DNA of 64,000 nucleotides. Origin: Pseudomonadota bacterium (GTDB lineage: Bacteria > Pseudomonadota > Alphaproteobacteria > Micavibrionales > UBA1664). Of this stretch, positions 2,758 to 44,788 are shown one piece after another. The position numbers were made by a program, and so were the translations under genes. The stretch spans positions 89,473 through 153,472 of the forward strand of contig RFNZ01000002.1 of the NCBI GenBank assembly GCA_009926935.1. Reading direction: 5' to 3'. Under the pieces are notes generated by a model. It was not told the origin of the DNA, did no database searches, and worked only from the letters and a program-made list of their open reading frames with translations. The first letter of the stretch is position 1. The number at the start of each line of letters is the position of its first letter.

Positions 2758-3498
2758 ATGAAATCCCTCCAAGGTAAAACAGCCATCGTAACCGGCGGCA
2801 GCCGCGGTATTGGCGCTTCCATCGCCCAAAAACTCGCAGCCGATGGCGCAAACATCGCCCTCACCTACGGTAAATCCGGGGCCGAGGCCGATAAACTCGT
2901 AGCCAGCCTGACCGCTCTCGGCATCAAGGCGAAGGCCTATCAGGTAAACGCAGCCGACAAAGCGGCTATGGCAGCCCTGCCCGCGACCGTCCTCAAGGAT
3001 TTCGGCGGCATCGATATCATCGTCAACAACGCGGGCGTTTTCAGCATGGGCGCAATTGGCGACGTCAACGCCGATGAATATACAAGGGTCATGGGCACGA
3101 ATGTGGATGGCCCCTTTGCCCTCATCAACGCCGCAACCCCGCACCTTAAATCCGGCGCGCGCATCATCAACATTTCAAGCGGGCTAGGTGAACGTGCGGG
3201 CATGCCCGGTGTCAGCCTTTATACGGCATCAAAATTTGCGGTAACGGGTTTAACCAGAGCTTGGGCCAAGGATTTTGGTCCAAAAGGCATCTTGGTCAAC
3301 GCCATCTTGCCCGGCCCCATCGATACCGACATGAACCCAGAAACAAGCACTTTTGCCGATTTCCAACGCTCGCTCACGGCCCTCGGCCGCTACGGAAAGC
3401 CCGATGAAATTGGCAACGTCGCAGCCTTCTTGGCAGGCCCAGGCGCCAGCTACGTCACAGGCGCTCTCATCGCTGTTGACGGCGGCTGGAACGCTTAA
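2758..3498 (+). CDS. Short-chain dehydrogenase/reductase (FabG-like SDR)
   Basis: TGGSRGIG cofactor motif, NNAG motif and catalytic YTASK (YxxxK); 246 aa. It is divergent from the GT4 gene and convergent with nuoG, with 9 nt between the two stops. Confidence 0.85.
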   Translation: MKSLQGKTAIVTGGSRGIGASIAQKLAADGANIALTYGKSGAEADKLVASLTALGIKAKAYQVNAADKAAMAALPATVLKDFGGIDIIVNNAGVFSMGAIGDVNADEYTRVMGTNVDGPFALINAATPHLKSGARIINISSGLGERAGMPGVSLYTASKFAVTGLTRAWAKDFGPKGILVNAILPGPIDTDMNPETSTFADFQRSLTALGRYGKPDEIGNVAAFLAGPGASYVTGALIAVDGGWNA

Positions 3499-3507
3499 GC
3501 GGTTTTA

Positions 3508-5499
3508 TTACTCAGCCGCCATTGCCAGAGGCTTCACAAAAGCCTCTGTGCACTGCGCCATCGTGACAGATGCGCGGGAAATCACGCAAGTTTGGTAGTA
3601 ATTGGCAACGGCCGTACCAAACGGCTTGGCGTCCAGCGTGCCCGCCTTACCAAAATCGCTCCAGGCAACAGGCGTAATGGCGTCAACAGCACCAAAGGCC
3701 GGTACGTCTTTTGCCATCGCGGCGCGTAAATCAGCAAGGGTATTGAAGCTCAAAGGCTTGCCAATCACTTCCGAGAAAGCACGGATGATTTTCCAGTCTT
3801 CCTTAGCTTGCCCAACAGGGCTTGTTGCTTGGCGTGTTTGCTGTACGCGGCCTTCGGTGTTTACATACGTCGCGTTCTTTTCGGTGTAGGTCGCGGCAGG
3901 GAATATCACATCCGCGCGTGCAGCACCTGCATCCCCGTGGTGCCCTTGGTAAATCACAAATGCATCAGCGGGGATGGATTTCACAACATCCGTATCCACA
4001 TTGTTGAGCCACACGGCCTTAATGCCTTGCCACGAAAACTGGCCTTGCGGCGGTGTAAAACCAAGCATCAAAGCGCCCATGCGCCCTGCTGCGGTGTGAA
4101 GGTAGTTGAAACCATTCCACCCCTCGTTCACAACGGCCTTCGCGCGCACAGCCGCCAAAACGGCAGAGGCATCGGCCCGCTGCAACGCAGCCGTACCCAA
4201 AATCATCGCAGGGCGCTCGGCCTTGATGCTCAATTTCTCAAGCGCATCCACCCCCGCACCCAAATACGTATACGGATAGTTCAAATCAATTTTCTGGCCA
4301 ATCACGTAAACCGGCACGCGCTTGTTGTACCAAACCTTACGGATACGCGCATTGATCAGCGGCGCTTCCGTACGTGGGTTACAACCAACCAATACAACCG
4401 CATCCGCCTGTTCAAGCCCTGCAATCGTCGTGTTAAACCGCCATGATGCAGGCGCGGATACATCTATCGCAGCCCCGTCCACACGGCATTCCAGCATATT
4501 GCTGCCAAGCCCGTTCATGAATTTTTTAAGGGCGTAAACGCTTTCAGCGCAGGCAAGGTCACCTGCAAGCGCCGCCATTTGCGCACCCTGTAGGCCCTTT
4601 AGTTTATCGGCAGCAAAGGCAAACGCATCTTCCCAGCTGGCTTCAACCAGCTTGCCGTCGCGGCGCACATAAGGGCGATCAAGGCGCTGCCGCTTGAGGC
4701 CATCCATCGCAAGGCGCGATTTATCGGCAAGCCATGTCTCGTTAATCGCCTCGTTAAGCCGCGGCAAAATCCGCATCACCTCGTTGCCGCGCACATCAAC
4801 CCTGATGTTGCAGCCAACGGCGTCCATCACATCGACGCTTTCAACCTTGCGCAACTCCCATGGCCGCGCCGTAAATTCATAAGGCGCACTCGTGAGAGCC
4901 CCCACAGGGCATACATCAACAAGATTGCCCGACATCTCGGACGCCATCGTTTTTTCGATATACGTGCCAATCTCGACATCCTCGCCACGGTTGAGCAACC
5001 CAAGGTCATCAACCCCCGCAATTTCGGATGCAAAACGCACACAGCGCGTGCACTGGATGCACCGTGTCATGACCGTTTTAACAACGGGGCCGAGTTCTTT
5101 GTCTTTAACCGCGCGCTTGGCTTCAAAATAACGCGACCGGTCATAGCCGTACGCAACCGCTTGGTCCTGCAAATCGCACTCGCCGCCCTGGTCACAAATG
5201 GGGCAATCCAGCGGGTGGTTGATCAGCAAAAATTCCATGACGCCTTTACGGGCCTTATGCACAAGCTCGGAATCCGTCAAGACTTCCATGCCGTCAGCGG
5301 CCGCAAGGCAGCACGATGCTTGCGGCTTTGGCGGCCCAGGCTTTACCTCAACCAAGCACATGCGGCAGTTGCCAGGTACCGATAATTTATCGTGATAGCA
5401 AAAGCGGGGGATTTCGATCCCCATTTGCTCAGCCGCCTGCAACAGGTTGGTGCCCGGGGCGACTTCAATTTCGACATTATTGATTTTCAATTTTGGCAT
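3508..5499 (-). CDS. nuoG: NADH-quinone oxidoreductase subunit G (75 kDa Fe-S subunit)
   Basis: N-terminal 2Fe-2S/4Fe-4S cysteine clusters (CYHDKLSVPGNCRMCLVEV, HPLDCPICDQGGECDLQD, CIQCTRCVRF) followed by a molybdopterin-like domain. The ORF track starts at a GTG at 5511. I prefer the ATG at 5497-5499 (MPKLKINN) because the same GGTGAAAACA(A)TG junction precedes nuoD. Confidence 0.93.
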   Translation of the reverse strand: MPKLKINNVEIEVAPGTNLLQAAEQMGIEIPRFCYHDKLSVPGNCRMCLVEVKPGPPKPQASCCLAAADGMEVLTDSELVHKARKGVMEFLLINHPLDCPICDQGGECDLQDQAVAYGYDRSRYFEAKRAVKDKELGPVVKTVMTRCIQCTRCVRFASEIAGVDDLGLLNRGEDVEIGTYIEKTMASEMSGNLVDVCPVGALTSAPYEFTARPWELRKVESVDVMDAVGCNIRVDVRGNEVMRILPRLNEAINETWLADKSRLAMDGLKRQRLDRPYVRRDGKLVEASWEDAFAFAADKLKGLQGAQMAALAGDLACAESVYALKKFMNGLGSNMLECRVDGAAIDVSAPASWRFNTTIAGLEQADAVVLVGCNPRTEAPLINARIRKVWYNKRVPVYVIGQKIDLNYPYTYLGAGVDALEKLSIKAERPAMILGTAALQRADASAVLAAVRAKAVVNEGWNGFNYLHTAAGRMGALMLGFTPPQGQFSWQGIKAVWLNNVDTDVVKSIPADAFVIYQGHHGDAGAARADVIFPAATYTEKNATYVNTEGRVQQTRQATSPVGQAKEDWKIIRAFSEVIGKPLSFNTLADLRAAMAKDVPAFGAVDAITPVAWSDFGKAGTLDAKPFGTAVANYYQTCVISRASVTMAQCTEAFVKPLAMAAE

Positions 5500-5505
5500 T
5501 GTTTT

Positions 5506-5774
5506 CACCACTAAGACGCTAAGAGCGCTAAGAATTTATTTCAGTTTCTCTTCTTTCAAAATCTCATCAAGCAATTTTCCGCCCCTAGCAAAATTAAATT
5601 ATGGTCAGGAATATCATGAAAAAATATTTCAACTTGCTCTGGCTTGCGCCCAACCTCTTCTACAAAAACATCTGTAATTCTTTTCACAAGGCGGCGCTTA
5701 TCATCAATCGTCAAATCATCGCGGTGATTGATATGTATGACTGGCATTCTTAGCGTCCTTAGCGTCTTAGCGGT
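5506..5774. repeat. Palindromic CTAAG-repeat element, copy 1 (about 269 bp), in the nuoF-nuoG spacer; carries a small ORF
   Basis: The left arm caccactaagacgctaagagcgctaagaa (5506-5534) and the right arm ttcttagcgtccttagcgtcttagcggt (5747-5774) are inverted copies with 2-3 mismatches. The arms are the same as in the 10806-10920 element. Confidence 0.85.
5556..5747 (-). CDS. 4-oxalocrotonate tautomerase-like small protein (63 aa)
   Basis: This is the C-terminal part of track ORF 5556-6149, starting at the ATG at 5745-5747: MPVIHINHRDDLTIDDKRRLVKRITDVFVEEVGRKPEQVEIFFHDIPDHN.... It has an N-terminal Met-Pro and a beta-alpha-beta pattern typical of the tautomerase superfamily. It lies entirely between the element arms. 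No obvious SD is present. Confidence 0.5.
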   Translation of the reverse strand: MPVIHINHRDDLTIDDKRRLVKRITDVFVEEVGRKPEQVEIFFHDIPDHNLILLGAENCLMRF

Positions 5775-5781
5775 TAAAAAA

Positions 5782-7065
5782 TCAAGCCGCCTTGGCTTGC
5801 TTGCGGTAGTCCATGATGCGCTGCTCGACAACGGGGCGGAAGTGCCTGAAGAGCCCCTGTATCGGCCACGCCGAGGCATCGCCATGCGCGCAGATCGTCT
5901 GCCCCTCAATCTGCTTCGAGATATCAAGCAGCATATCGATTTCTTCAATCGTGGCATTGCCCGTGACCATACGCTGCATGATCTTGTACATCCACGCGGT
6001 ACCCTCGCGGCACGGCGTGCACTGCCCGCAGCTTTCATGCATGTAAAAATAGGATAGCCGCGCAATCGCGTACACGACATCCGTCGATTTATCCATGACA
6101 ATAAGCCCAGCCGTCCCAAGGCCCGATTGCACGGCGCGCAGGCTATCAAAATCCATCACAACCGTATCGCAAATCTCGCGTGGTAACAGCGGTGTCGATG
6201 ACCCACCAGGGATCACGCATAAAAGGTTATCCCACCCGCCGCGCACACCGCCCGCATGCTTCTCGATAAGTTCCCGCATGGGGATGCCCATCGCCTCTTC
6301 CACATTGCACGGCGCATTCACATGGCCGGAGATGCAGTAAAGTTTGGTACCCGTATTCTTGGCATCACGCCCAATACCCGCAAACCACTCCCCACCACGG
6401 CGCAGAATGGTTGGCACTGTCGCAATCGTCTCAACGTTGTTCACGGTCGTAGGGCAGCTATAAAGCCCCGCCATGGCCGGAAACGGCGGCTTGTTACGCG
6501 GCTGGCCTTTTTTACCTTCTAGCGATTCCAGTAACGCCGATTCCTCGCCGCAAATATACGCGCCGCCACCGCGGTGCAACTCCACATCAAAATCCCAACC
6601 GGACCCCGCCGCATTTTTACCAAGCAAACCCGCCGCCCGCGCTTCATGAATGGCTTTCCAGACATTCGAGCTTTCGTCAAAAAACTCGCCGCGAATGTAA
6701 ATATAAGCCTTATGCGCGCCAATCGCATGCGCCGCAATCAAAGCGCCTTCAAGCAACTTGTGCGGCTCATGGCGTAAAATCTCGCGGTCTTTGCAGGTGC
6801 CAGGCTCGCTTTCATCGGCATTGATAACCAGATAATGCGGCTTGTCTGATGGCTTCGGCATGAACGACCATTTCATACCGGTCGGGAACCCCGCGCCCCC
6901 GCGCCCACGCAGGCCTGATTTTTTCATCTCCTCGATAATCCAATCACGGCCCTTGGCAATGATGGCGGCTGTGTTATCCCAATCCCCGCGCTTTTTAGCA
7001 TCGGCAAGTGTGAACGAATTCCAGCCATAGAGGTTTGTAAATATGCGATCCTTGTCAGCGAGCAT
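5782..7065 (-). CDS. nuoF: NADH-quinone oxidoreductase subunit F (51 kDa, FMN/NADH-binding)
   Basis: [13 protein letters not shown] (FMN/NADH site), [12 protein letters not shown] 4Fe-4S motif, 427 aa. Confidence 0.96.
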
Positions 7066-7157: not shown

Positions 7158-7559
7158 TTAGTCCAAAAACCTGTCTTTAAGGCTTGGTTCAGGCAGGGGG
7201 CACTGGTCCAGTTTTCCAAACCATGCATACCGCCGCTTGCCTATGAAATCATACGCGCAATCCCTAAGCGCCCTTGGAAGCATCCTCAAACCGTAAAAGA
7301 GTGCCCAGGGTAACCCTAAAAACCGCAGCGTTATTAGCACGGCATCGCTCTTGGCGTACACGCGCCCGCCGTGAATAAGGTAAACGGAATCACCTGCCTT
7401 GCCGCCGTACTCCTCAAGCAGGGCAACCCCTTTCGCTGACTGCTGTGAAACAAATTTAAACTTGGCCAGTTTGTCACGCCTCAGCACAAACCGTACGGAC
7501 GCATGACAAAGGTTACACACCCCGTCAAACAGCAAAATGGGCCCATTTTTGCTCACCAT
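7158..7559 (-). CDS. DCC-family (DUF393) thiol-disulfide oxidoreductase
   Basis: Likely start MVSKNGPILLFDGVCNLCHASVRFVLRRD at 7559. The FDGxCxLC redox motif is present. Its ATG is 1 nt after the HTTM stop (7553-7555). Confidence 0.75.
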   Translation of the reverse strand: MVSKNGPILLFDGVCNLCHASVRFVLRRDKLAKFKFVSQQSAKGVALLEEYGGKAGDSVYLIHGGRVYAKSDAVLITLRFLGLPWALFYGLRMLPRALRDCAYDFIGKRRYAWFGKLDQCPLPEPSLKDRFLD

Positions 7560-8908
7560 GTGCGGGCCTTCCAGTGCACAAAAGGTTCCTTGAGCGGTAA
7601 TAACCAAGTCTCAGGGGCAATCCCCCATGTTTCTTTTGTAAGGTCGGTGTCTGGGTCAACCAACAAGGCAGGCTTCCGTCCATTAAGGCTTACATGCACC
7701 TCACACTTGACCTCGGCATCCCGAACGCCCTTTTCGCGGCGCCATTTGTCATCGATATAATACGCAAACTGTAAAAGCGACTTCGCCTCAAGCGATACGG
7801 CCGCATACTGCCGCTGCGTCAGAAAGTCTTTAGGGTCAATCACCCACTCCTGTTTTGTATCGGGGTCGCGCACAAGGCAGCGTGAGCCATAAAATCTATG
7901 GTTATCCAACATCATGCGCCATGCAAAACCTTGGCCCTCGCCCGTCCAGCTTGTGTCTCCGGGGTAATAAAAGCCGCGCAGCGGCACTAGCGCTTGCACG
8001 GCAAGCCACACAGTCATCATGAGGATCACGAGTGTGCCCGGCACCTCCTGCTCGGCAACAGGCACCGGCGATACAGGCTTAAACCGCCCTAAAACCTTGA
8101 GCGGCCAGTCAGGGTCAAAAAACAGTGTCGTTGCCAAAATCGTAAGATACGGGAAGAAGTCGATGTAAAACGTATACGAGTTCAAAAGATGAAAGAGGCA
8201 GTAAACGCAAAACACCCAAACCCGCGTCCGTTTGAAAAACAGAAGCGGCGCACCAACCAGATGGAGGGCAATCGTGCCATAAGCACCAAGCGCCACAAAC
8301 CAGTCCTCAAAAACAAGGCGCCCAAAGATATGGTCGGGCAGCGATCTCAACATGCTGCCCAAAGGCTCGAGCATCAGCCAATCCGGCTTCAGCTTCATCA
8401 ACCCGGCATACAGCAGAACAATTTCTATCTGCATCCGGAAGGTCCAAAGACTCCACCCCGGCACGAGCGGCGTCCAGTTTTTCCGCCGCGCATCAAGCGA
8501 CCACGCGCGATGCATCGGCAAAAAAATCATCAAAATGGCAAAGAGAATAATCAGGTAATAGTGGTTGAGGTAAAACGCAGCTTCCGCCAGAAACGAATAC
8601 GCAAACAAAATAGTGAACACCGTAATCGCCACGCGGTAATAAAGCCCGAGCGCGATAAAAATTCCTGAAATTCCGGCAATCACAATGTGGGCCTTGAGCA
8701 TCCAAAGCGCGGGCCACGTCGGCACCCATTCAAAGTACGTGTACTTCAGATGAAATTCAGGCGTGATGAAATTTTCCAATTGAAACTGGTCATCGATCGA
8801 AAAATCGAGGATGCCGCCGATAACCACCATCACGCCAAAGACGATCCGGAAAAACGCCAGCGAGTAGCCACTGACAGGGGTTGCGAGTACTTCCTTAAGG
8901 GAACGCAA
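7553..8908 (-). CDS. HTTM-domain membrane protein (vitamin K-dependent gamma-carboxylase-like)
   Basis: 451 aa. The N-terminus reads SLAFFRIVFGVMVV, followed by multiple TM helices. The C-terminal soluble part reads WTGEGQGFAWRMMLDNH, as in HTTM/VKGC homologs. It starts 17 nt after the nuoE stop on the same strand. Confidence 0.75.
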   Translation of the reverse strand: MRSLKEVLATPVSGYSLAFFRIVFGVMVVIGGILDFSIDDQFQLENFITPEFHLKYTYFEWVPTWPALWMLKAHIVIAGISGIFIALGLYYRVAITVFTILFAYSFLAEAAFYLNHYYLIILFAILMIFLPMHRAWSLDARRKNWTPLVPGWSLWTFRMQIEIVLLYAGLMKLKPDWLMLEPLGSMLRSLPDHIFGRLVFEDWFVALGAYGTIALHLVGAPLLFFKRTRVWVFCVYCLFHLLNSYTFYIDFFPYLTILATTLFFDPDWPLKVLGRFKPVSPVPVAEQEVPGTLVILMMTVWLAVQALVPLRGFYYPGDTSWTGEGQGFAWRMMLDNHRFYGSRCLVRDPDTKQEWVIDPKDFLTQRQYAAVSLEAKSLLQFAYYIDDKWRREKGVRDAEVKCEVHVSLNGRKPALLVDPDTDLTKETWGIAPETWLLPLKEPFVHWKARTW

Positions 8909-10799: not shown

Positions 10800-10805
10800 G
10801 TTTTC

Positions 10806-10920
10806 ACCGCTAAGACGCTAAGTACGCTAAGAAAATTTTATACCATTCATTATTAATCCACCTCGAAAATCTAACTAGCTAAAAACAAATTCTTCTTAGC
10901 GTACTTAGCGTCTTAGCGGT
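10806..10920. repeat. Palindromic CTAAG-repeat element, copy 2 (115 bp, no long ORF), in the nuoC-nuoD spacer
   Basis: accgctaagacgctaagtacgctaagaa at the left end and its exact reverse complement ttcttagcgtacttagcgtcttagcggt at the right end form a perfect 28-bp terminal inverted repeat. The arms are built from CTAAGnCG units. Confidence 0.9.
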
Positions 10921-10928
10921 AAAAAAAA

Positions 10929-42050: not shown

Positions 42051-43046
42051 ATGCCAAAAACATACGAACTAACAGGTCTCGGCAATGCCATCGTTGACGT
42101 CATCGCCAACGGAACGGACGATTTTCTGGCCAAACACGGCATCATCAAAGGCGCCATGAACCTGGTCGACGCCGAGCGATCCAAGTATCTCTACGATGCC
42201 ATTGGCACCGCAAGGCAGGTATCAGGCGGCTCCGCGGCCAATACCATGGCGGGTTTTGCCTCTCTTGGCGGCAAGGGCGCGTATTTGGGCAAAGTGGCCG
42301 ATGATCAGCTGGGTGAGTTTTTCGCCCACGACATGCGTGCAGGCGGCATCCATTTTGACTGCACACCACTCAAAAACGGCCCCGCCACCGCCCGCTGCAT
42401 GATTATCGTAACCCCTGATGCGCAGCGCTCCATGAACACATACCTGGGCGCCTGCGTCGAATTCTCGGAAGAAGACGTAGATGAATCTCTGATAGCTGAT
42501 TCAAAAATCATCTACCTTGAAGGCTATCTCTTCGATAAACCGACCGCAAAAATGGCCTACCTCAAAGCCACCAAAAAGGCCCGTGCGGCTGGCACAAAAG
42601 TTTCGCTTACGCTTTCTGATAGCTTTTGTGTTGAGCGCCACCGTGCCGATTTCCAAAAACTGATCGCCGATGAAACCGATATATTATTCGCAAACGAAGC
42701 CGAAATTTTGGCGATGTACCAAACAACATCCTTTGAAGATGCAGTAAAAGCCGTGCGCGGCAAATGCGATGTTGTGGCCATCACCCGCAGCGAAAAAGGC
42801 TCGGTCATCGTAACGGCGACTGAAACAATCGAGGTACCGGTCCAGCCCGTTGCCCACGTGGCCGATACAACGGGCGCGGGCGACCAATACGCGGCAGGCT
42901 TTCTGTTCGGTTACGCCCGTAACATGCCGCTTGCTACCTGCGGCGCTTTAGGTTCACTCGCCGCCGCCGAAGTTATTTCTCATGTGGGCCCCCGCCCCGA
43001 AACCTCGCTGGCACAACTCGCCCAACAACAAAAACTCGCCGCATGA
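42051..43046 (+). CDS. PfkB-family kinase (adenosine kinase-like)
   Basis: GGSAANT and DTTGAGDQYAAGFLFG PfkB signatures. 331 aa. The length and pattern are as in alphaproteobacterial adenosine-kinase-like proteins. Confidence 0.75.
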   Translation: MPKTYELTGLGNAIVDVIANGTDDFLAKHGIIKGAMNLVDAERSKYLYDAIGTARQVSGGSAANTMAGFASLGGKGAYLGKVADDQLGEFFAHDMRAGGIHFDCTPLKNGPATARCMIIVTPDAQRSMNTYLGACVEFSEEDVDESLIADSKIIYLEGYLFDKPTAKMAYLKATKKARAAGTKVSLTLSDSFCVERHRADFQKLIADETDILFANEAEILAMYQTTSFEDAVKAVRGKCDVVAITRSEKGSVIVTATETIEVPVQPVAHVADTTGAGDQYAAGFLFGYARNMPLATCGALGSLAAAEVISHVGPRPETSLAQLAQQQKLAA

Positions 43047-44788
43047 TTTTTTTAAAACACAGAGCACACAGAGATCACAGCGACATTTACTCAAGCTTCG
43101 CTGTGCGCGCTGTGGTCGCTGTGTTTAATATTCTTTTTATCTTTATTTATATTTTTAGCGCCCATGCTGCCGACAAAACCGTGCACGCGCTCGCCATGCA
43201 CGGCGCACCAAAGTATGACGTAAAAGCAACGCAGCTTGATTACATTGATACAGCCGCAAAAAAAGGCGGCACCCTCACCCAAAGCGTCGCGGGTACATTC
43301 GATACCCTCAACCCCTTCACCCTCAAAGGCAAACCCGCGCAAGGGCTGGACTACGTGTACGATAGGCTGGCCGCAAGGGTGTGGGATGAGCCGTTTACAC
43401 TTTACGGCCTCATCGCCAAAGAAATGGTGGTGCCTGAAGACAGGTCATCCATCACTTTCATTCTGGACCCCAAAGCAAAGTTCCACGACAAAACATCCAT
43501 CACTGCCGATGATGTAAAGTTTAGTTACGAAACACTGAAGCAATACGGCCGTCCAAACATGCGCCGCGTCTACGGCCTTGTTAAAAAAGTGACCATAGAA
43601 AACCCGCGCCGCATCAAATTCGATTTAGGGCCGGGTTACGACCGCGAGACAGTGATGATCCTCGCGATGATGCCCGTGCTGCCAAAGCACGATTGGGCTG
43701 GGCGTGATTTCAATTCAACCACACTGCAAATCCCCGTGGGCTCAGGCCCCTATCGCATCAAAAACGTGGGCATTGGCCGTAAAATTGAATACGAACGCGT
43801 AAAAGACGACTGGGCGGCAGACCACATCACCCGCAAAGGCCACTTTAATTTCGACACACTGGTATTCGATTATTACCGCGATGATGCCGTAGCGCTCGAG
43901 GCCTTCAAAGCGCATGAAGTCGATGTTCGCCGCGAATTCGATACCGCAAAATGGCAAACCGCCTATAAGGGCCTGCCCCAAAGCGTAAAGCTAGAGCCCC
44001 TGCCCCATGGCCGCCCTGAGTGGGTGAAGGGTTTTATCTTCAACCTTCGCCGCCCGCCGTTTGATGACATACGGGTGCGCAAGGCCCTCAACCTCGCCTT
44101 CGATGCCGACTTCGTCAATCAAACGCTCTATCGCGGCCAAGCCAAGCGCATCACAAGCACCTTCCCGAATACCGAACTCGCGGCAAACATGCTCCCGCCC
44201 GCTCCCGAAAGGCGAGAGGCGATGAAACAGGCAGACGCCCTGCTGGATGAAGCAGGCTACGTTGTACAGGCAGGCAAGCGTGTTAAAAAGGCTGATGGGA
44301 GACCGCTGACATTCCAAATCCTGCTGGCCTCGGCTCAAGATGAAAAAACGGCACTGGCCTTAACTGGCGGCCTCAAAAAACTGGGTATCGATGCCACCAT
44401 ACGCACCGTCGATGCCGCGCAATTTGCAGGCGCCCTTGCGACGTATGATTACGACATGGTGCTCCATTACTGGATAAACAGCCTCTCCCCCGGTACTGAA
44501 CAGGTACTCTATTGGGGCTGTGACCAATCGGGCCTCGGCGGCGGCAAAAACTACAGTGGCGTCTGTGACCCAGTCATAGACGAGGCCGCAAAGGCCATAG
44601 CCGCTGCTGTAAGCCGCCGTGATCTCTTACAAGCCGCCCGTAACCTCGATAAACTGGTAATGGATCAGACCCTCTTTATCCCGCTTTTTACGATCGGGCT
44701 CGATTACTGGGCCTCGTGGTCCAACGTTGTCCACCCCAAACAGACCCCGCTCTACGGCCAAGTCCTTGAAACATGGTGGGCACGTTGA
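43043..44788 (+). CDS. ABC-transporter family-5 periplasmic substrate-binding protein (YejA/OppA-like), with no adjacent permease genes
   Basis: 581 aa. The mature region begins ADKTVHALAMHGAPKY, as in YejA-like proteins. The signal peptide VRAVVAVFNILFIFIYIFSAHA suggests the real start may be the GTG at 43103. Confidence 0.75.
   Translation: MIFLKHRAHRDHSDIYSSFAVRAVVAVFNILFIFIYIFSAHAADKTVHALAMHGAPKYDVKATQLDYIDTAAKKGGTLTQSVAGTFDTLNPFTLKGKPAQGLDYVYDRLAARVWDEPFTLYGLIAKEMVVPEDRSSITFILDPKAKFHDKTSITADDVKFSYETLKQYGRPNMRRVYGLVKKVTIENPRRIKFDLGPGYDRETVMILAMMPVLPKHDWAGRDFNSTTLQIPVGSGPYRIKNVGIGRKIEYERVKDDWAADHITRKGHFNFDTLVFDYYRDDAVALEAFKAHEVDVRREFDTAKWQTAYKGLPQSVKLEPLPHGRPEWVKGFIFNLRRPPFDDIRVRKALNLAFDADFVNQTLYRGQAKRITSTFPNTELAANMLPPAPERREAMKQADALLDEAGYVVQAGKRVKKADGRPLTFQILLASAQDEKTALALTGGLKKLGIDATIRTVDAAQFAGALATYDYDMVLHYWINSLSPGTEQVLYWGCDQSGLGGGKNYSGVCDPVIDEAAKAIAAAVSRRDLLQAARNLDKLVMDQTLFIPLFTIGLDYWASWSNVVHPKQTPLYGQVLETWWAR
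43052..43128. repeat. CACAG-repeat palindrome spanning the annotated 5' end of the binding-protein gene
   Basis: ttaaaacacagagcacacagagatcacagcg (43052-43082) and cgctgtgcgcgctgtggtcgctgtgtttaa (43099-43128) are imperfect inverted copies built from CACAG(N)G units. Confidence 0.7.

Follow-up and report, generated by a model that had tools for sequence, protein, structure and literature searches.

A frameshifted tautomerase-fold gene as the probable cargo of a palindromic cassette in an alphaproteobacterial nuo operon

A palindromic element between nuoF and nuoG

The nuo operon in a contig from a member of the Micavibrionales (lineage UBA1664; contig RFNZ01000002.1 of assembly GCA_009926935.1) contains a palindrome of 278 nt that takes up the entire spacer between nuoF and nuoG, with a small tautomerase-like open reading frame (ORF) filling its loop. 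The stretch of DNA analysed, here called the window, is 64,000 nt long; coordinates are positions within it, and the nuo operon lies on its minus strand. We argue below that the gene is probably decaying cargo of the palindrome, and not an accessory of Complex I.

The upstream neighbour, nuoF (427 aa, 5782..7065), ends in a TGA at 5784-5782, and the 34-nt upstream (5') arm of the palindrome (5746..5779) begins 2 nt past that stop codon. This arm consists of TTTTAACC followed by three CGCTAAG units at a spacing of 8-9 nt, and its last bases overlap the ATG (5747-5745) of the ORF, which the first-pass annotation had correctly placed at the edge of the arm. In its present form the ORF occupies 5556..5747 on the minus strand, ends with a stop codon at 5558-5556, and yields exactly the 63 residues first quoted for it; a longer entry in the ORF track (5556-6149) proved, as had been supposed, to be an artefact, a TTG-initiated ORF that runs out of frame over nuoF. 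The 34-nt downstream (3') arm (5502..5535, minus strand) was recognised by inverted-repeat search, by its sequence and in RNA folds, and is followed by nuoG (663 aa, 3508..5499), with its ATG at 5499-5497. The two arms, each made of three CGCTAAGA units, are 88% complementary and stand 210 nt apart. CGCTAAGA occurs eight times in the 64 kb, always within this element or the related one between nuoC and nuoD (see below), against a mean of 1.4 in shuffled sequence; none of 100 shuffles reached eight.

The closing stem of the long element is present in both the minimum free energy (MFE) and the centroid RNA folds (-92 kcal/mol, z = -5.7). The outer end of the 3' arm carries a GGTGA (5509-5505) 5 nt upstream of the nuoG ATG. 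Upstream of the cargo ATG, the first-pass annotation had seen no Shine-Dalgarno sequence; the clear GGAG of orthologous genes is indeed missing from this copy, but a weak AAGGA is located 8 nt before the ATG, within the arm. The long stem is followed by no U-run on either strand, as an intrinsic terminator would be. A terminator scan returned only a weak 6-bp hairpin with a T-run at the very end of nuoF, and the number of such calls was no higher than chance. Here (5783-5799, minus strand) the last nuoF codons form the 6-bp hairpin, and the element's T-run comes next (CAAGCCAAGGCGGCTTG ATTTTTT); the site has a terminator-like score, and such sites are not above shuffle expectation. A search of the window for known RNA families (Rfam, gathering thresholds) gave seven tRNAs and nothing else. 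The beginnings of the cargo and nuoG are alike (5745-5724 and 5499-5476, minus strand; MPVIHINH and MPKLKINN, with ATGCCA...ATCAAT common to both at the DNA level), a resemblance that is probably coincidental.

A second, shorter element fills the nuoC-nuoD spacer (10801..10925, minus strand). Its 39-nt arms are 92% complementary, nearly identical to those of the long element, and separated by only 47 nt with no cargo. The predicted RNA fold is again stable (-62 kcal/mol, z = -11), and the GGTGA of its 3' arm is 4 nt from the nuoD ATG. No similarity was found between the short element's loop and the interior of the long element, and the possibility that the short one is a simple deletion derivative was rejected on that ground. 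Within this loop (10840-10886, minus strand), a strong Shine-Dalgarno-like GAGGTGG stands 7 nt before the ATG of a seven-codon ORF (MNGIKFS) that ends in the 3' arm; it could be a product of chance, a leader peptide or a remnant of cargo.

The encoded protein

The first-pass annotation had called the ORF tautomerase-superfamily-like, by comparison with the 4-oxalocrotonate tautomerase (4-OT) family, and proposed a profile search and a structure prediction, both of which match the tautomerase family (the latter with a monomer model). The Pfam Tautomerase profile PF01361 scores 38.7 bits with the actual 63-aa ORF and 45.5 bits with a repaired version described below (cut-off 22), and a profile of the subfamily matches 64 tautomerase-family sequences in the PDB, with a best E-value of about 2e-9. 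An AlphaFold2 model of the 63-aa product has strands at residues 3-9 and 40-46 and a helix at 14-32, with a predicted local distance difference test score (pLDDT) of 91-97 over residues 1-40. The top Foldseek matches of the model all belong to the 4-OT family (4faz, 4fdx, 8t9o, 2op8), with a root-mean-square deviation of 0.7-1.4 A over 46-49 residues. The product begins MPVIH..., and Pro2 is nearly invariant across 44 aligned sequences; removal of the initiator Met would expose the proline. Because Pfam, profile comparison, AlphaFold2 and Foldseek agree, membership in the tautomerase superfamily and the Met-Pro start are established, and the beta-alpha-beta pattern originally proposed is likewise confirmed.

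A narrower assignment, to canonical 4-OT, does not hold. Arg11 and Arg39 of Pseudomonas putida 4-OT, which bind the carboxylate of the substrate, align by hhalign to Leu12 and Glu40 (counting the Met), and both replacements are conserved in the subfamily. The sequence also misses the cut-off of every NCBIfam equivalog, with best scores of 41.2 bits (actual) and 55.2 bits (repaired) against 80 for NF001966. The product is therefore not a canonical 4-oxalocrotonate tautomerase of the DmpI/XylH type. An exhaustive HMMER search found two 50%-identity representatives at 128 bits or more, the next hit at 92 bits, and 1840 more distant superfamily hits. Members of the subfamily start MPVIHINH, end NFAKGGxLL, are 62-72 aa long, and have a set of near-invariant residues rich in His and Asp that is atypical for 4-OT. 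As judged from these alignments, they constitute a narrow, strongly conserved 4-OT-fold subfamily of Micavibrio-like Alphaproteobacteria.

A recent frameshift in the window copy

The 63-aa ORF had been treated as intact, and in this respect the first description needs correction. A tandem duplication of 5 nt (AATTT|AATTT, 5591..5600, minus strand; the DNA reads cat AATTT AATTT tgct) shifts the frame after codon 50, such that residues 1-50 make up the beta-alpha-beta core and residues 51-63 are a frameshift tail. The product departs from the family at residue 51 (LILLGAENCLMRF), and pLDDT falls to 51 and then 38 over the last 13 residues. All 47 retrieved homologues end ...D(H/E)NF(A/S)(K/R)G(G/R)xL(L/A), the most conserved motif of the family, while the window product ends ...DHNLILLGAENCLMRF. 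The remnant of the conserved C-terminus (PDHNFARGGKLLDEILKEEKLK) persists out of frame at 5536..5604 (minus strand), and tblastn accordingly recovers the gene as two halves in different frames, 5747-5595 and 5604-5539, the second matching residues 47-68. Deleting one AATTT restores a 68-aa ORF ending ...DHNFARGGKLLDEILKEEKLK, which can be aligned to the orthologues over its full length (71% identity to P0002).

What has been lost is a C-terminal beta-hairpin with Phe50 and a GG motif, which in 4-OT is needed for packing of the hexamer. This hairpin is absent from the window product and is modelled with a pLDDT of 94 (residues 51-60) in the intact orthologue P0002. The ORF had also been noted to end short of the arm; a gap of 20 nt does separate the present stop codon from the 3' arm, but it arises solely from the frameshift. 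The restored TAA (5538-5536) adjoins the arm, and therefore the ancestral ORF filled the loop exactly. A clear GGAG lies 5-11 nt before the ATG in six orthologues (L003, L005, L006, L007, L020 and L023), and the window copy has none.

The lesion must be recent, because the out-of-frame remainder of the gene is still intact. Programmed frameshifting at the AATTTAATTTT site was considered; an X XXY YYZ slippery heptamer is lacking and none of the other homologues requires a shift, and recent mutation is the preferred explanation. An assembly artefact was likewise set aside, given that the ENA and Logan assemblies have identical sequence, although both appear to come from one sample. Read from its sequence, the window copy is a recently frameshifted pseudogene, that is, cargo in decay.

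Related arms around orthologous genes

Orthologues were fetched from genome and metagenome collections, and their loci are labelled L003-L028. The first-pass annotation had suggested that the long element might be a cargo-carrying version of the short one. This suggestion is strengthened by the finding that, besides the identity of arms within the window, similar arms enclose the orthologous gene in four other lineages; in seven or more the gene was found without arms. Cassettes occur at the nuoF-nuoG junction in L003 (units CACAGAG) and L020 (units CACTAAT), between nuoM and nuoN in L007, a Micavibrio metagenome-assembled genome (units CACTAAG), and after a gene in L005 (units ACCAYAGAGGCAC). 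The flanking inverted repeats are significant in the window and in these four loci, with scores of 14.5-24 against shuffle maxima of 9.5-12.5, and the terminal stem is present in the MFE fold of every cassette. Enclosure by arms was found in five of 13 lineages with the tautomerase gene and for about one of 180 other genes in 186 kb (rough Fisher p about 3e-6).

An alignment of the left arms with one another is possible (T-run, A(A/C)C, three units); they are therefore homologous, and the right arms carry changes that match those of the left. In an alignment of six elements, 19 of 32 pairs have changed on both sides, and 85.7% of cells pair, compared to 36-47% when the partner is slid; none of 500 shuffles reached the observed values. 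Cells that do not pair are concentrated in the 1-2-nt spacers separating the 7-nt cores, and within any one arm the three units remain alike. This pattern suggests, from the alignment, a constraint on the core sequence besides pairing. An alignment of L020 with L007, at about 85% identity in the ORF, is too diverged to give sharp boundaries for the element.

Other palindromes occur near two of the orthologues. Directly downstream of the L005 cassette (1493-1597) is a second, different palindrome with 43-nt arms that are 72% complementary and contain units of 9-nt period (CACGCAAAG-like). In the GC-rich relative L008, the tautomerase gene lacks arms, and an unrelated GC-rich palindrome pair of 26 nt (GTTCCCCCGCGAAAGCGGGGGAC..., 1488-1579) lies between it and fabG.

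Can the arms hold anything else? Between nuoM and nuoN, L007 has a tandem pair of cassettes that share the same arms, and a duplicated 5' fragment of nuoN (78 nt) stands between the two. The tautomerase gene is in the first, and the second contains a gene for a 127-aa GxxExxY/PD-(D/E)XK protein (TIGR04256, 141.8 bits; PF13366, 142.7 bits). In its inner 3' part, the tautomerase cassette repeats the end of the GxxExxY cassette at 98% identity, the final 16 codons of the GxxExxY gene being among the copied sequence, and therefore cargo has been exchanged within an existing frame. No GxxExxY gene was found in the window. An empty element (ACGAAG units) is located in L023 between pyrH and frr, with the tautomerase gene, lacking arms, one gene further on. 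The tandem arrangement in L007 (956-1940) is a duplication of a unit made up of the element and the first 78 nt of nuoN, with its junction at a 10-nt match (GCGGCGATTG) shared with the 3' end of nuoM; as a result, a truncated nuoN' mini-ORF remains between the cassettes.

Genomic contexts

The first-pass annotation had also raised a functional tie to Complex I, which the distribution of the gene does not support. At least nine different operon contexts were counted for the tautomerase gene, and in each of them it has the orientation of its neighbours. Apart from the nuo operon, it is found after sucB (L004), before murA (L006, L009 and L010), between fabD and fabG (L008), between aldH and a GNAT gene (L012-L017), between an SSF transporter gene and LysE (L018), between a 2-hydroxyacid dehydrogenase gene and Ldh_2 (L021), and between frr and uppS (L023).

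The nuoF-nuoG junction itself is variable. The window NuoF is 81% identical to that of Micavibrio aeruginosavorus, and the closest relatives by NuoF identity have other contents at the junction: an 82-aa membrane-like ORF in L025 (NuoF 96%), ORFs of 218 and 143 aa in L026 (91%), a 91-aa ORF in L027 (91%), and nothing in L028 (85%). None of these four (L025-L028) has arms at nuoF-nuoG or an element at nuoC-nuoD. The comparison indicates that the junction is a hypervariable, permissive site, and that the cassette would be a lineage-specific acquisition.

Other junctions of the window nuo operon are also interrupted by non-nuo genes. Between nuoE and nuoF (7158-8908, minus strand) are genes for an HTTM (vitamin-K-dependent gamma-carboxylase-like) protein and a DCC1-like thiol-disulfide oxidoreductase, and between nuoG and nuoH are an SDR gene on the opposite strand (2758-3498, plus) and a glycosyltransferase gene (1400-2656, minus). 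Relatives hold different inserts at those junctions, namely UbiA, SBP_bac_3, DnaJ and dCMP deaminase genes.

The element family in the window

A third element in the window (43051..43130, plus strand) has the same layout with other units: a T-run, AAAC, three CACAG(A/C)G units at a 9-nt period, and a loop of 12-16 nt. It directly follows a PfkB kinase gene, with an ATGA overlap at the stop codon (43043-43130), and extends over the 5' end annotated for an SBP_bac_5 gene. It lies in frame within the longest ORF of that gene. Either the element encodes the start of the signal peptide, much as palindromic elements of Rickettsia are tolerated in frame, or the true start of the SBP_bac_5 gene is a GTG in its 3' arm.

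The census of the window thus comprises two copies of one element subfamily and one of another. In the layout common to the family, a T-run and A(A/C)C precede three units of 8-9 nt, each with a 7-nt core specific to the genome; the opposite arm mirrors these units, and the loop is either empty (12-62 nt) or occupied by one small promoterless gene. The elements lie between co-directional genes of housekeeping operons, without a terminator.

Origin and fate of the cassette

The closest relatives lack the cassette at this junction, gene and arms recur together in other lineages, and the arms can hold another gene. The reading we favour, with a probability of roughly 0.6, is that the window copy is a decaying cargo gene in a non-autonomous palindromic cassette that resembles MITEs (miniature inverted-repeat transposable elements), MICs (mobile insertion cassettes) and intervening sequences (IVSs) of rRNA, and that is co-transcribed with nuo and is not a Complex I accessory. 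We take it for a small gene cassette, and not a helper enzyme of Complex I, because related arms that co-vary surround this gene in four further lineages as well. The element would have entered a permissive hot spot, through insertion or recombination, and would be transcribed as part of the nuo mRNA. The arms could then pair into a stem of 28-34 bp, with the cargo looped out and its start codon buried; if the intervening sequences of 23S rRNA, such as that of Coxiella, are taken as a guide, a stem of this length is a likely substrate for RNase III. The GGTGA at the outer end of the 3' arm is predicted, from complementarity to the 3' end of 16S rRNA, to serve as the Shine-Dalgarno sequence of nuoG and, in the short copy, of nuoD, and therefore insertion would be harmless. 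In this genome the cargo is decaying, with a frameshift and without the GGAG of its orthologues, and the hairpin frame persists.

Several observations weigh against the cassette reading. Neither the three window copies nor those in L003, L005, L007 and L020 are flanked by a direct repeat that could be a target-site duplication; the outer A/T-rich flanks of the elements themselves belong to the inverted repeat. No transposase or other mobilising enzyme was seen, the interiors of the nuo elements holding only the tautomerase ORF or 47 nt. There are only three element copies within the 64 kb, arms are clearly not obligatory, considering the seven or more lineages in which the gene lacks them, and the frameshift has been seen in metagenome assemblies of one sample only. 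Finally, co-variation between the inverted repeats is equally expected from a constraint at the DNA level and from RNA pairing.

Alternatively, the arms could be a dedicated cis-regulatory hairpin, a conserved RNA structure of the tautomerase gene, co-evolved with it and not a mobile frame, which occludes translation or provides an RNase III signal when the gene resides in foreign operons. The homology of the arms across lineages with their compensatory changes, the retention of the stem in every MFE fold, and the position of the cargo ATG and weak AAGGA in or beside the stem would all be accommodated. It is difficult to see, however, how such a hairpin would come to occur without the gene and around an unrelated GxxExxY gene, or why more than half of the lineages have the gene without arms, tightly overlapping its neighbours; moreover, pairing alone does not require that the units within an arm be alike or that mismatches collect in the 1-2-nt spacers. 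We consider this alternative unlikely, but the foremost of the rivals. Less likely again is the proposal that the MPVIHINH protein is the trans-acting partner of the elements, encoded by a single-copy gene that the dispersed palindrome of the genome flanks, and binding, processing or mobilising them in the way of the transposases associated with repetitive extragenic palindromic (REP) sequences; a Schiff-base reaction of Pro1, as in the apurinic/apyrimidinic lyases Fpg and Nei, is a possible chemistry. The very strong conservation of the protein, with its unusual His/Asp-rich set, the loss of the carboxylate-binding arginines (which implies that the substrate is not 2-hydroxymuconate) and the occurrence of a member of a nuclease superfamily as alternative cargo are in keeping with such a role. 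So is the fact that the flanking arms and the empty copy in this genome are of one sequence class, the pattern by which REP-associated tyrosine transposases (RAYTs) were recognised (PMC3733652). Yet the protein has only 62-72 aa, many genomes have the gene without arms, L023 combines an empty element with an arm-free tautomerase gene, and the window copy is broken even though its arms are the best preserved of all. Searches of phage (PHROGs), defence (PADLOC) and plasmid (tblastn) collections gave no hits, and an origin from phages, defence systems or plasmids was rejected; we know of no precedent for a tautomerase-fold protein as the trans-acting factor of a palindrome.

An accessory enzyme linked to Complex I, for instance in quinone-related chemistry, with the palindrome incidental, would fit the location of the gene inside nuo in four of about 13 lineages (at nuoF-nuoG in the window, L003 and L020, and at nuoM-nuoN in L007). 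The range of the other contexts, from sucB and murA to fabD-fabG, aldH-GNAT, 2-hydroxyacid dehydrogenase-Ldh_2, frr-uppS and SSF/LysE, the unrelated ORFs or empty junction in the closest relatives, and the frameshift in the window copy make this very improbable. Least credible of all is a chance juxtaposition, in which two independent repeat half-sites happen to flank a small gene in repeat-rich spacers. Empty elements do show that the repeats exist independently of the gene, but elements are sparse (about five non-tautomerase elements in 186 kb), the arms adjoin the ATG and the ancestral TAA exactly, and enclosed genes are found in five lineages whose arm sequences all differ.

Significance

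Small palindromic repeats such as REP sequences, MITEs, Rickettsia palindromic elements (RPEs) and IVSs are usually treated as non-coding. On the cassette reading, the present hairpin family would be a frame for a single promoterless small gene, inserting exactly from stop codon to start codon in essential operons without breaking them. If this is general, it would offer very small genes a route to spread, with expression obtained by hitch-hiking on housekeeping transcripts, and would help explain the variable extra ORFs that litter alphaproteobacterial nuo operons. The analysis also singles out a tightly conserved 4-OT-fold subfamily without the canonical substrate-binding arginines, and for annotation it implies that the window copy should be called a frameshifted pseudogene and not an intact 63-aa enzyme. 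Should the protein after all prove to be the trans-acting partner of the elements, it would be the first tautomerase-superfamily protein to act on nucleic-acid hairpins, and the elements, resident in spacers of housekeeping operons, would define a new class of small selfish cassettes.

Comparison with known systems

At the level of the protein, the resemblance to the 4-OT family is close: a length of 60-70 aa, a Met-Pro start, a beta-alpha-beta core, a C-terminal GG hairpin in intact orthologues, and matches in both profile and fold. The subfamily differs in having Leu and Glu in place of Arg11 and Arg39, in scoring below the NCBIfam 4-OT and DmpI equivalogs, and in being set apart by the gap from 128 to 92 bits; the window copy has in addition lost its C-terminal hairpin through the frameshift.

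At the level of the element, the closest parallels are found in several classes of small insertion. MITEs and MICs are bounded by inverted repeats and lack a transposase, and MICs with passenger genes have been described (PMC3129680, PMC5444012). The present elements likewise have terminal inverted repeats with no transposase inside, exist in short empty and longer passenger-carrying forms, and differ by presence or absence at an orthologous site. However, no target-site duplication and no cognate insertion sequence or transposase was found here, the arms are built of three tandem 8-9-nt units, and the copies are co-oriented in operon spacers that they fill exactly from stop codon to start codon.

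The IVS in the 23S rRNA of Coxiella burnetii has a 28-bp terminal stem, which RNase III cuts in its middle, and a decaying ORF (PMC4990558). In both cases terminal inverted repeats form a stem of about 28-34 bp around a small ORF that is optional, decay affects both this ORF and the region upstream of it, and the element is transcribed within a host RNA, as would be expected for the cassette here. Unlike the IVS, the cassette sits in an mRNA operon spacer and not in an rRNA helix, and its cargo is a tautomerase-fold protein. Small genes of the sort associated with IVS-type insertions include those for GxxExxY and four-helix-bundle proteins.

REPs are imperfect palindromes of 20-40 nt, with stems of 8-9 bp, loops of 4-5 nt and a GTAG or CGTC tag; CGTC-tagged REPs occur in Alphaproteobacteria including Micavibrio (PMC3733652). 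The present elements resemble REP/REPIN-RAYT systems as genome-specific extragenic palindromes between co-directional genes, and in the flanking of a single gene by inverted copies of a dispersed repeat. They differ in having stems of 26-39 bp composed of tandem units and in flanking tautomerase or GxxExxY genes and not a Y1/HUH transposase. An identification with the CGTC repeats described for Micavibrio was rejected, as the architecture does not fit.

RPEs and the Correia elements of Neisseria are small palindromic insertions that are tolerated in expressed regions and co-transcribed with their neighbours. The third window copy, which overlaps the 5' coding end of a gene, is similar in this respect, but there is no apparent sequence relationship to the elements here, and to our knowledge neither RPEs nor Correia elements carry an ORF as cargo. 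An integron attC cassette was also rejected, since the ORF is inside the hairpin loop and not 5' of the hairpin site, with no array and no integrase in the neighbourhood, and a Xer/dif module was ruled out on geometry. The searchable literature held no description of these elements, whether as a tautomerase gene with nuoF/nuoG, as GxxExxY cassettes or as Micavibrio palindromes. What distinguishes them from MITEs and MICs, IVSs and REP/RAYT systems alike is the combination of arms made of tandem units with exact occupancy of the spacer from stop codon to start codon.

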